IMG/VR virus record: IMGVR_UViG_3300031992_000070
Span: 16,912 to 80,911 of that record
Reading direction: 5' to 3' (one strand)
Length of the DNA: 64,000 nt
From: a virus
Lineage: Duplodnaviria; Caudoviricetes
Shown: in pieces, positions 29,412-35,883 of the stretch
Numbering within the stretch: position 1 is the stretch's first letter
Layout of the letters: each line of letters begins with the position of its first letter
Translations under genes and position numbers: made by a program
The notes under the pieces: generated by a model
Databases searched by the model: none
The model's input: the letters and a program-made list of their open reading frames with translations, nothing else
What the model was told of the DNA's origin: nothing

Positions 29412-30173
29412 TTGATTGGTATGAGAAGAACAAGAGAGCAGATTGTTGCAGAACAAGATGAAAGATTGTTATGGAACGGAAATAAGCGTAGGGAAGATTT
29501 TAGAAATCGCTACATTGAAAAGTTTAATGCTTTATATGGTGACAAATATGATTATCTTGATGCTGATTTTCACACACATAATGGTCTTATTAATGTATTG
29601 TGTCCAGAACATGGTTTGTTTAAAGTGACCATACAACAGCATTTGCATGGCAAGGAATGTCCGAATTGCAAGCCTTGGAGAAAGAATCAAGTAAAAACAG
29701 AAAAAACAAGACCAAATGGTGTTGTTTTAAAAGAATTGGCTTACAATCGTATCAGCACACCTATTGATGCAGAAAAGAAAAATGAATTGTATATATTAAA
29801 AAAGATGCATCCATATATTTCTTCTCGTTCGGAAGGAGAAATATTAATAGCAAGGTATTTAGACAAAAACGACATAAAATATTATCGTGAATGGAAATTG
29901 CCTAATGAATACCTGCTAAACCCCCGCAATTATATGCTTGTTGATTTTTATTTGCCAGACCACAATACGTTTATTGAATTTAACGGTGTTCAACATTTCA
30001 AGCCGATAGGTTGGTTTGGAGGTAATGATGTTTTTAAAATGCAACAAGAACGTGATTATGGGCTAAGATTGTATTGTAAGGAACATGGCATAAGGCTAAT
30101 TGAAATTTCGTACAAAGATGTGGGAAAAATCGCGGAAATTTTGAAAACGAAAGTTAAAAACCTTAATAAGTAA
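29412..30173 (+). CDS. DUF723-like zinc domain fused to a DUF559/Vsr-like endonuclease (homing endonuclease-like)
   Basis: YGDKYDY..VLCPEHGLF..HLHGKECPNC; SEGEILI..VDFYLPD..IEFNGVQHF. Confidence 0.8.
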   Translation: MIGMRRTREQIVAEQDERLLWNGNKRREDFRNRYIEKFNALYGDKYDYLDADFHTHNGLINVLCPEHGLFKVTIQQHLHGKECPNCKPWRKNQVKTEKTRPNGVVLKELAYNRISTPIDAEKKNELYILKKMHPYISSRSEGEILIARYLDKNDIKYYREWKLPNEYLLNPRNYMLVDFYLPDHNTFIEFNGVQHFKPIGWFGGNDVFKMQQERDYGLRLYCKEHGIRLIEISYKDVGKIAEILKTKVKNLNK

Positions 30174-32172: not shown

Positions 32173-33012
32173 ATGGAATATACAAAAGAACATCCGTTAA
32201 GAGTTGTGACTCTTTGTTCTGGCTATGATAGCCAGTGTCTTGCACTTGAGCGTCTAAAGGCTTATTATCAAGATTTTGATTATGAGCTTATCGCTTGGTC
32301 AGAGTTTGACCCAGAAAGCACAACGCCGCTTGAAAAGCAGCCTGCCGTAGTTGCACACAATGCATTGTTTCCGCAGTGGGCTGACAGGAATTTGGGTGAT
32401 ATGACAAAGATTGACTGGACCAAAGTTGATGATTTTGATTTGTTGTTCTATTCGACTCCCTGTCAGAGCATTTCGTCAGCAGGCTTGCAGCACGGATTTG
32501 TGGAGGGTAGCGGCACAAGGTCAAGTATTATCTGGAACGTGCGTGATGCCGTCAAGGAGAAACGGCCTAAATTTCTTTGTCTTGAAAACGTGAAAGCGAT
32601 GGTCAGCGGCAAGTTCGTGGGGATGTTCAATCTTTGGCAGAACGAGTTGGAAAGGCTTGGTTACGCAAACTTTGCACAGGTGTTGAATAGTAAGGATTAT
32701 GGTGTTCCTCAGAACCGTGAAAGGATTTTCTTGGTCTCCATCCGCATAGATGATGAGTCGCCAAAATACAATTTCCCGAAACCATTCCCGCTTGAAAGGA
32801 AACTGAAAGATGTGCTTGAGGACAGTGTTGATGAGAAATACTATTTGTCTGATGAGCGTGTGGAAGGGTTGTTGAATAGCACACAAAAGGAGTCCGAGCG
32901 CGGCAACGGTTTTGCTTTTAGTCCTACCGATGGCAATGGCGATGCTCATGCCATAAAGACGCAGGATGGTAGTCGTAAAACCGATAATTTCCTGTTTGAT
33001 GATTATGAGTAA
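32173..33012 (+). CDS. C5 DNA cytosine methyltransferase, N-terminal polypeptide (motifs I-VIII plus first TRD-like segment)
   Basis: TLCSGYDSQ (motif I variant), STPCQ (IV), LENV (VI), PQNRERIF (VIII). Confidence 0.9.
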   Translation: MEYTKEHPLRVVTLCSGYDSQCLALERLKAYYQDFDYELIAWSEFDPESTTPLEKQPAVVAHNALFPQWADRNLGDMTKIDWTKVDDFDLLFYSTPCQSISSAGLQHGFVEGSGTRSSIIWNVRDAVKEKRPKFLCLENVKAMVSGKFVGMFNLWQNELERLGYANFAQVLNSKDYGVPQNRERIFLVSIRIDDESPKYNFPKPFPLERKLKDVLEDSVDEKYYLSDERVEGLLNSTQKESERGNGFAFSPTDGNGDAHAIKTQDGSRKTDNFLFDDYE

Positions 33013-33157
33013 GGTGAAAGTTCCGCTTAACACTGATGTTGATGGTTGCTGTATGACTATCAAGACAAGTTATAGTCGTATGACATACGCGAATTTCCTT
33101 GGTCACCAGCACGACGGTTATGCCGCAACTGCTATTTGTGAGTATGAAAGCGAATAA
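33005..33157 (+). CDS. Methyltransferase TRD-like mini-ORF 1 (50 aa)
   Basis: MSKVKVPLNTDVDGCCMTIKTSYSRMTYANFLGHQHDGYAATAICEYESE; ATG inside TATGA. Confidence 0.65.
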   Translation: MSKVKVPLNTDVDGCCMTIKTSYSRMTYANFLGHQHDGYAATAICEYESE

Positions 33158-33314
33158 GGCAACTGGCGGCAAGAGGCTTGCATCAATGGTGTCCAAGATA
33201 GATAGGGCTTACCTTTGGATTGACACATACAATCAAAGGGTAGATGATATTGCTGGCACAATCAAGGCTCGTATTGACGGAAACTGTATGTACTATGTAA
33301 GTGTTGAGAAATGA
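33144..33314 (+). CDS. Methyltransferase TRD-like mini-ORF 2 (56 aa)
   Basis: MKANKATGGKRLAS...WIDTYNQRVDDIAGTIKARIDGNCMYYVSVEK. Confidence 0.65.
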   Translation: MKANKATGGKRLASMVSKIDRAYLWIDTYNQRVDDIAGTIKARIDGNCMYYVSVEK

Positions 33315-33481
33315 AAGATATGGATTGTTTCGGTCTAAGCCGTAGTAGAGACCACAAAGGCGTTATAGTTAAAAGGAGTCTTGTTCCTTACACGAACTGT
33401 ATTCACACAATGGTCGGTAGTGGCTGGAAAACAATGGAGGTTTTAGTGGTTGAGGTTTATGAAGAAAGTAATGTTTTATAA
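33311..33481 (+). CDS. Methyltransferase TRD-like mini-ORF 3 (56 aa)
   Basis: MKDMDCFGLSRSRDHKG...YTNCIHTMVGSGWKTMEVLVVEVYEESNVL. Confidence 0.65.
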   Translation: MKDMDCFGLSRSRDHKGVIVKRSLVPYTNCIHTMVGSGWKTMEVLVVEVYEESNVL

Positions 33482-33626
33482 CATAGATTCTGATGAATGT
33501 GCGAAAGCCATTCTCTCTGGCTGCTACAAGTTTGGTGTTGCCACGTTGCTGCGACCAGATGGTGCTACGATGACAAGCGTAATTGAGGTAGAGGATGAAA
33601 ATAATATCGTGTGCAATGAGAAGTAG
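33459..33626 (+). CDS. Methyltransferase TRD-like mini-ORF 4 (55 aa)
   Basis: MKKVMFYNIDSDECAKAILSGCYKFGVATLLRPDGATMTSVIEVEDENNIVCNEK. Confidence 0.65.
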   Translation: MKKVMFYNIDSDECAKAILSGCYKFGVATLLRPDGATMTSVIEVEDENNIVCNEK

Positions 33627-33744
33627 GTCGAGTGGCGACTGGCATTCATCCGAACACAGGCAGATACTTGAACTCGGAACGGACATATCCAATTCGGTCA
33701 CAAGTGTTCAGAAAGACAGTTTAATATGCGAGATTTATGATTAG
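33595..33744 (+). CDS. Methyltransferase TRD-like mini-ORF 5 (49 aa)
   Basis: MKIISCAMRSRSSGDWHSSEHRQILELGTDISNSVTSVQKDSLICEIYD. Confidence 0.65.
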   Translation: MKIISCAMRSRSSGDWHSSEHRQILELGTDISNSVTSVQKDSLICEIYD

Positions 33745-33865
33745 TTACATTATGCCAAACCCTCAAAAAAAATTTGGAGAATGGAGGTTGGATGCTAATA
33801 TAGCACCATCTATACTATCCACAGATTACAAGTCTCCACCAATAATAGTAGAGTGTTATGAATAA
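33737..33865 (+). CDS. Methyltransferase TRD-like mini-ORF 6 (42 aa)
   Basis: MISYIMPNPQKKFGEWRLDANIAPSILSTDYKSPPIIVECYE. Confidence 0.65.
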   Translation: MISYIMPNPQKKFGEWRLDANIAPSILSTDYKSPPIIVECYE

Positions 33866-34355
33866 TAACGAGTGTAAAATAAAAATAGTAGGCTATTACA
33901 TTAAGCCGAATAGGCATAGACCAGCAAAAGGAGTCGTTTATAACGCAAGCGGTATTTCGCCATGCGTTACGGATTATTCCCTTGGTGGCAATCTTGTGCC
34001 TACGATTATAGTAGATGACCATTTAAAAAGCAAAACAAATATGGAACAGACAAAAAGTAGTAAAATCGAGTTGCCAGAAGAATTGAAAGGCAAAAAGTTC
34101 AGAATCAGGAAACTTACTCCAAGAGAGTGTTTTCGTCTAATGGGTGTTAATGATGCGGACATTGACAAGATGCAGGCTGCGGGCATTTCAAATAGCGGTC
34201 TTTATAAACTGGCTGGAAATAGTATTGTCGCTGGAGGTAACTATGTTGATTACAATGGAAACGTAGATGGTGTACTATTTAATCTCTTCCGCAAGATGTT
34301 TATCGAAACGGGAGTTGAGAAAAGCGAGGAGCCTCAACAATTAACATTGTTTTAA
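33858..34355 (+). CDS. C5 DNA methyltransferase, C-terminal polypeptide (last TRD-like segment plus motifs IX-X)
   Basis: GVVYNASGISPCVT..GGNLVPTI; RIRKLTPRECFRLMG (IX); LYKLAGNSIV (X). Confidence 0.9.
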   Translation: MNNNECKIKIVGYYIKPNRHRPAKGVVYNASGISPCVTDYSLGGNLVPTIIVDDHLKSKTNMEQTKSSKIELPEELKGKKFRIRKLTPRECFRLMGVNDADIDKMQAAGISNSGLYKLAGNSIVAGGNYVDYNGNVDGVLFNLFRKMFIETGVEKSEEPQQLTLF

Positions 34356-35104: not shown

Positions 35105-35636
35105 CTTTGTGCAACTTAGCAACAAGTTCTCCTATGCAAACAAGAATACGTTCGTGCAAGATGCTACGGCTTGTTTCCGCAGGGACAGTCCTACGTTCGT
35201 GCGGATAGACATCACATACGGCAGAGGCTCTTCCGCAAACTGGATATACAACATATTACAGGGTATGTTCATATTCCTTGGCGTGACGAACGACAAGTTC
35301 AGCAAGGAGCAGGTCTACAATCTCGCATGCAGCATCTATGCAAACTATAAGACGCTGAAAGTTGTTGAGTTCCTTCTGTTCGTTACACGCTTTGAGGGCG
35401 GCAGGTACGGAAAGTTCTACGGAGATACATCGTATGCCCTTACAGTCACGGATGCGCTGAACAGATTTATGGTCGAGCGGGAACACTACTATGCTGACAT
35501 TGAGCGTGCGCGTGCCGAAAAGAAGATTGAGGAAAGCAAGAAGGATACAATCACTTTTGAGGAATACAGGCGTATGAAAGAAGAAAGCGGAGAGCACGTT
35601 TCAAGTATGCTTGATGAACTTTACGGCAATGGATAA
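34968..35636 (+). CDS. Replication-associated protein (DUF6633-like, helicase-loader position)
   Basis: Overlaps the initiator gene; EFLLFVTRFEGGRYGKFYG motif. Confidence 0.55.
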   Translation: MEEKQSPTRLGEALKKQTSLVSNSQNELAVSSKPTFVTEITTRYGSFVQLSNKFSYANKNTFVQDATACFRRDSPTFVRIDITYGRGSSANWIYNILQGMFIFLGVTNDKFSKEQVYNLACSIYANYKTLKVVEFLLFVTRFEGGRYGKFYGDTSYALTVTDALNRFMVEREHYYADIERARAEKKIEESKKDTITFEEYRRMKEESGEHVSSMLDELYGNG

Positions 35637-35883
35637 GGAAGAATACAACAGACTGCTAAAGGACTGGCGGTGGAAAGAACGCCGTAGAGAAATCCTTGAA
35701 AGGGATGATTATACGTGTCAAGAATGTTACGCCGACAGAAACGACGGTGTTGTATTAAACGTACACCACAGGTATTATATAGACGGTAATATGCCTTGGG
35801 AATACCCAGACGAAGCATTGGTTACTTTGTGCGAAGATTGCCATAGAAAAGAACATAAATATAACGAAATTGATGTTTATTAA
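35629..35883 (+). CDS. HNH endonuclease
   Basis: WKERRREILERDDYTCQEC...LNVHH...LVTLCEDCH. Confidence 0.85.
   Translation: MDKEEYNRLLKDWRWKERRREILERDDYTCQECYADRNDGVVLNVHHRYYIDGNMPWEYPDEALVTLCEDCHRKEHKYNEIDVY

Follow-up and report, generated by a model that had tools for sequence, protein, structure and literature searches.

Each target-recognition domain (TRD) of the multispecific C5-methyltransferases (C5-MTases) of Bacillus phages reportedly sets one specificity, as described in the Trautner papers. These enzymes, M.phi3TI (M13488), M.SPRI (K02124), M.H2I (M72412), and M.rho11sI (X05242), are single ORFs of 439-503 aa in which tandem TRDs of approx. 40-55 aa, finishing with a hydrophobic strand and Glu, lie between motifs VIII and IX, the region in which C5-MTases read their target (PMC3404938). 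In M.AquI and M.EcoHK31I, the core is distributed over two polypeptides, and M.AquI divides into motifs I-VIII and IX-X (PMC3404938). Both are monospecific, their variable region lies within the two chains, and they have no free TRD genes or array. A specificity subunit that is separate and exchangeable, HsdS, is found in Type I restriction-modification (R-M) systems (PMC12707154), which methylate adenine and have large bipartite S subunits. In phase-variable MTases (phasevarions), repeat slippage switches the reading frame (PMC12707154), and the repeat switches the whole enzyme.

The locus described here, carried on a phage DNA stretch of 64,000 nucleotides (the window), shares features with each of these systems. 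It belongs to the same catalytic family as the Bacillus-phage enzymes and likewise has several TRD-like units; however, its TRDs are separate genes, its core is split, and in place of a single polypeptide there are eight ORFs in three frames, with a pool of at least 20 module families and, in relatives, a switch tract in individual modules. The core is in two polypeptides as in M.AquI and M.EcoHK31I, but six further TRD-like ORFs are part of neither chain. As in Type I R-M, specificity would reside on a separate, exchangeable polypeptide, here for a C5 enzyme with 50-residue single-TRD peptides, to which the S subunits have no reported homology. A frame-switching repeat like that of phasevarions is seen in relatives of the locus, not in the window copy, and there the runs belong to individual specificity modules of a phage locus. 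No published description of the array layout was found in the literature searched, which did not cover most subscription journals. Quimbyviridae were considered as carriers of such a methylase and rejected, as their overlapping ORFs encode a DGR reverse transcriptase (PMC8008677).

In the window, six ORFs of 42-56 aa are chained by overlaps between the two halves of a C5-MTase gene (32173-34355). The parts of the locus are as follows.

32173..33012, plus strand: catalytic chain with motifs I-VIII (residues 1-~235) and a C-terminally fused TRD-like module, M0; PF00145, E 1e-43
33005..33157, plus strand: free module M1, 50 aa, family 0; 43-member family, pN 0.30 versus pS 0.96
33144..33314, plus strand: free module M2, 56 aa, family 8; 19-member family, pN 0.25 versus pS 0.85
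33311..33481, plus strand: free module M3, 56 aa, family 2, with entry by a -1 ATGA overlap; backed by homologues and a structural model
33459..33626, plus strand: free module M4, 55 aa, family 0; near-identical copies in kin L189, L192, L193, and L199
33595..33744, plus strand: free module M5, 49 aa, family 7; match to the variable region of L011
33737..33865, plus strand: free module M6, 42 aa, family 20; found in kin L191, L200, and L202, absent from L192, L193, and L199
33858..34040, plus strand: module M7, family 4, joined in frame to the IX-X chain on its N-terminal side; homology to Bacillus multispecific TRDs
34041..34355, plus strand: closing chain, 104 aa, carrying motifs IX-X; starts at a conserved internal ATG with A/T-rich surroundings

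PF00145 matches only the first ORF (residues 10-250) and the last (33858-34355, residues 59-124, E 7e-7), and a Pfam search gave no significant match for the six mini-ORFs. A first-pass annotation of this DNA had described the eight ORFs with motifs I-VIII and IX-X on separate ones, seven NATGA junctions (six in the +1 and one in the -1 phase), and eight related core motifs from GDAHAIKT to GISPCVT, all of which were recovered with the coordinates and lengths it gave. In particular, the junctions comprise five TATGA, one AATGA (33311, the -1 ATGA overlap), and one GATGA (33595), with overlaps of 8, 14, 4, 23, 32, 8, and 8 nt in order, and the core motifs start at 32938, 33044, 33246, 33389, 33495, 33682, 33797, and 33951. 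The statement that homopolymers are lacking is correct for the junctions but not for the interior of module 6, which contains one in-frame A8 run (33765-33772). A chain of six overlapping ATG ORFs (at least 40 aa each) compares with a maximum of three in 1,500 dinucleotide shuffles. Moreover, the same genes are called with offsets identical to those of the window in Logan assemblies of SRR9006729 and SRR9006730, which makes an assembly error unlikely, although raw reads are not part of this evidence. Only two of the six mini-genes are called in the matching Logan contigs, as expected if standard annotation overlooks such modules. Promoter and terminator scans gave results at chance level.

The hallmarks of C5-MTases (catalytic PC, ENV, and motif VIII; motifs I-X) are present, spread over two ORFs. 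The catalytic chain matches M.HhaI (E 8e-27), P96-C97 is invariant and E138-N139-V140 and motif VIII are conserved in 81 relatives, and the chain evolves with a pN of 0.13 versus a pS of 0.86. Motif I (window 32173-32240) is atypical, with LCSGYD for the usual FxGxG; this variant is common to the whole clade, and C15, G17, Y18, and S20 of the region are invariant across the 81 relatives. The last ORF has a second conserved start at 34041, which corresponds to a conserved Met approx. 18-22 codons ahead of motif IX; a Met no more than 32 codons from motif IX is found in 35 of 39 scored loci. The IX-X segment is a stand-alone ORF, with an in-frame stop just upstream, in at least seven relatives, including L010, L024, L090, L094, L096, L111, and L140. 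Among the kin, L202 has a 104-aa IX-X ORF, exactly the length of the closing chain, and has lost both fused modules while most of its free modules are still intact, and L192 has a 123-aa ORF, an out-of-frame C9 run severing its last module from IX-X. The scaffold thus probably consists of the catalytic chain and an autonomous IX-X chain that starts at 34041. In the closing ORFs of L134, L136, L137, L152, and L160, a longer, unrelated, helical-looking segment precedes motif IX and replaces the usual short leader. When viral contigs were scanned with the C-terminal ORF, no match emerged.

The relationship of the modules to TRDs is best documented for M7, M5, and M3. Families 1 and 4, the latter including M7, match TRDs of the Bacillus multispecific MTases (E 1e-4 to 1e-15); the M7 family HMM finds the phi3T, H2, rho11s, and SPR enzymes at E 1e-10 to 1e-15, and among the modules this family alone matches characterised enzymes, and several of their TRDs. 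M5, whose start codon is backed by homologues, matches the in-chain variable region (residues 235-278) of the single-chain relative L011 (z 14.8; family HMM E 1e-11). The M3 profile retrieves 169 short stand-alone homologues and 609 matches in longer proteins, nearly all of which carry PF00145 among the 120 listed, and in 98 of 99 scorable single-chain MTases the match is located in the stretch from motif VIII to motif IX. In its structural prediction (mean pLDDT 82.5), M3 combines a beta-hairpin with a loop and an end strand; the best structural match of its 52-residue model reached only Z 2.0, without a Foldseek hit or a usable protein-atlas match. In the AlphaFold model of L011, the core is confident and like M.HhaI, but the variable region has a pLDDT below 50, too low to inform on module packing. 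A direct tie to MTase variable regions exists only for families 1, 4, and 7 and the M3 family, and the assignment of M0, M1, M2, M4, and M6 relies on weaker profile links and position alone. At a lenient pairwise threshold, profile comparison joins 21 of 22 families, the exception being a Cys-rich unit; the family consensus has a variable first half, a T/C-I/L core, often a Gly-rich loop, and a closing hydrophobic strand with E-x-Y-E. These comparisons support the view that the eight window units between motifs VIII and IX are TRD-like, and the same claim in the first-pass annotation holds at the level of sequence, through the family HMMs, the match of M5 to L011, and the placement of M3. The Cys-rich 36-aa unit (family 18) is not TRD-like but lies inside arrays (L089:1744-1850, L118:1471-1580, L140:1310-1415) and has the same Y-E junction at its end; a role as cargo or regulator is possible.

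The catalytic ORF, used as a query, retrieved 178 loci. The split layout is present in all 41 complete distinct relatives of the window's clade that have both halves, with the core motif halves 324-3049 bp apart, and the spacers are chains of modules of approx. 45-70 aa that vary in number and order. At least 20 families have four or more members, and they recur in different orders, as should be the case for the relatives with variable module number and order that had been proposed as a check. Compared with their own families, the window modules have saturated synonymous sites (pS 0.72-1.0) and a pN of 0.25-0.30, which indicates purifying selection. Relatives at 55-58% identity form a cluster with one single chain of 343-356 aa. 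A large phage- or prophage-like group (L011-L080, L166) has a single-chain enzyme with one M5-family TRD, and one contig of this group lies in a Segatella copri bin; the enzyme is a ready control for the specificity of the M5 family. In Dulem virus 40 (PP511379, L179:2480-4420), an annotated lemur faecal phage, a related methylase is found in two CDS of approx. 258 and 373 aa.

Arrays of kin at 82-93% nucleotide identity differ in their modules, and DNA homology to the window stops at the junctions (33316-22, 33458, 33598-601, 33740, and 33856). These breakpoints, read from sequence comparison, support both the conclusion that whole modules are gained and lost at junctions among close kin and the earlier claim to that effect. 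It had also been proposed that a shared phase frees such recombination from frame constraints; this phase is not needed. Modules of families 0, 4, 7, and 20 are entered in the +1 phase in the window and by a -1 ATGA overlap in kin. Only the ATG is therefore constant at the junctions. Of the expectation that NATGA junctions are conserved in relatives, the ATG remains, whereas the phase differs, with +1 overlaps at approx. 200 of 317 junctions; these census counts are approximate, since the caller favours T-ATG-A and some starts are wrong. The prevalence of the +1 phase is a side effect of how the protein ends: the Tyr/Asp-Glu codons of the conserved end motif read xAT-GA.

Many relatives carry homopolymer runs in their modules. 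G7-G11 runs, typically on Gly-Gly codons, number 113 in 61,089 bp of arrays versus 5 in 259,315 bp of flank; C7-C10 runs also occur in the arrays, with shorter lists than the G runs. Confident scoring was possible for 158 G runs; the frame is kept in 68 and lost in 90 (about 57%), and all scored tracts are in frame in only 2 of 23 tract-bearing complete loci. Tract lengths are polymorphic: over 2,710 bp, L094 and L096 differ by a single G, which flips a module, and five of the six indels between L094 and L111 fall within such runs. The tracts in relatives are thus interpreted, from polymorphism between assemblies only, as a hypermutable frame-shifting switch for each module. Such a switch is absent from the window, where all eight modules are open: no G run of seven or more occurs in 19 complete loci, the window included, positions 32801-34100 contain no G or C run of four or more, and the whole genome has none of seven or more. 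Family 0 modules with a G run one base short read from their first half into the next module, which gives a chimeric ORF and not a truncation (L100:1908-2150, L140:888-1130, L001:6819-7099).

We propose that the locus encodes a phage anti-restriction C5-MTase assembled from separately made parts of one operon. The operon would yield the catalytic chain (I-VIII), the closing chain (IX-X), made from 34041 or, with M7 attached, from 33858, and six peptides of 42-56 aa, each equivalent to one TRD of a multispecific MTase. The codons at the end of each peptide (hydrophobic strand and Y/D-E) would supply the next ATG and hence translational coupling; the separate, coupled ORFs of the first-pass annotation stand as ORFs, and the translation of each peptide is inferred without expression data. 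Overlaps of up to 32 nt in the window and approx. 60 nt in relatives count against separate peptides, as do several module ATGs without A at -3, a base that favours initiation in Bacteroidetes (PMC6847099). The two core chains would then assemble, and one module at a time would fill the variable-region slot and set the target, so that up to eight motifs would be methylated in this phage; cytosine C5 methylation and the association of the chains into an active enzyme are inferred, with no activity data. As each module is its own gene, its insertion or deletion, or in many relatives its silencing through slippage of a G or C run, would leave the core and the downstream modules unharmed.

It is considered likely that the enzyme forms from the two core chains and accepts a single TRD peptide at any time, the target sequence depending on which peptide is bound. 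Scarcely less likely is the broader proposition of a DNA methyltransferase class whose specificity is supplied in trans by interchangeable peptides of approx. 50 residues, each encoded by a gene of its own that is open to gain, loss, or phase switching. Docking in trans and distinct specificities are both inferred in the absence of binding or methylation data. Two-chain C5-MTases and fragment complementation are established, in favour of the proposed enzyme, but splits of M.SssI in the distal variable region complement poorly (PMC3404938), and no precedent for a three-part C5-MTase with a free 50-residue TRD was found in the searchable literature. An arrangement that does not require trans docking is that of an M.AquI-like two-chain enzyme in which function is limited to the modules attached to the catalytic or closing chain, the middle modules being a store of cassettes moved into the fused position by recombination at the junction motif. 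The swapping of modules at junctions and the many different families found fused to IX-X are compatible with this unlikely alternative; however, the middle modules keep their start codons, are under purifying selection, and carry switch tracts of their own, which would be without effect on silent cassettes, L202 retains free modules in the absence of both fused ones, and no conserved DNA recombination site was seen at the junctions, only 11-23 nt of similarity at the junction motif.

The first-pass annotation had also entertained programmed ribosomal frameshifting at each junction, which would give one Bacillus-type multi-TRD polypeptide, at least at a low level. In-frame fused multi-TRD enzymes are the known form, and +1 overlaps occur at six of the seven window junctions and at most of those in relatives, but the junction census revealed no common slippery sequence ahead of the ATG, kin differ in whether a given module is entered by +1 or -1, and the window would require seven shifts in succession. 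In addition, a frameshifted fusion would lose IX-X in nearly all tract-bearing loci (21 of 23), whereas with separate genes each switch is non-polar; the out-of-frame tracts, together with the own start of IX-X, argue for separate peptides and, with the mixed junction phases, render frameshifting very improbable. There is a slightly fainter chance that the peptides are made but work apart from the methylase core, e.g., as site-binding or decoy proteins against host restriction enzymes. The hairpin predicted for M3 on its own and the one array family that is not TRD-like would agree with such a role, yet the modules are invariably placed after motif VIII and before motif IX of the core genes, the same sequences are in-chain variable regions elsewhere, and without modules some cores (L202) would have no recognition region. 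Decay of a multi-TRD methylase into a pseudogene, which the first-pass annotation expected to show as breaks at random positions, and an assembly artefact are both largely refuted and have hardly any credibility left: although some relatives (L195, L202) have broken modules without a tract, the breaks are confined to one motif, the split is shared by all 41 relatives, selection is strongly purifying, independent assemblies agree, and the shuffle test was negative.

If the peptides dock in trans, they would explain how specificity changes on one core, which the Bacillus enzymes leave open. Interchangeable peptides would give a phage population combinatorial methylomes, and biotechnology a core that one added short peptide retargets. 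The system also hints at bet-hedging by uncultured gut phages against restriction, largely overlooked by gene callers. The arrays would further offer dozens of minimal 5mC recognition modules, a natural collection from which peptide sequence could be related to DNA target, and a modular tool to methylate DNA before transforming hard-to-transform gut bacteria.

The genome around the window is a single contig of 80,911 bp that encodes a large terminase and RecT and RecE-like proteins, and the methylase locus has an SSB gene on one side and an O-like replication initiator on the other. Contigs of relatives are binned with Bacteroidales, Prevotellaceae, and others, from which a gut or rumen Bacteroidales host is inferred. 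CCGG, GATC, and CCWGG sites number 0 in the genome versus 277, 466, and 64 expected. GGNCC is nearly absent, and at least 12 6-bp palindromes, e.g., GAATTC and GTCGAC, are at zero. The missing CCGG, GATC, and CCWGG sites and the many missing 6-bp palindromes suggest heavy restriction pressure on the phage, and the avoided sites may be those that the module set does not cover. One enzyme core probably shields the gut or rumen phage against many host restriction enzymes, the protection itself being inferred. The replication module is flanked by a homing-endonuclease-like ORF (29412-30173) and an HNH-like ORF (35611-35883), both recognised by sequence motifs only.
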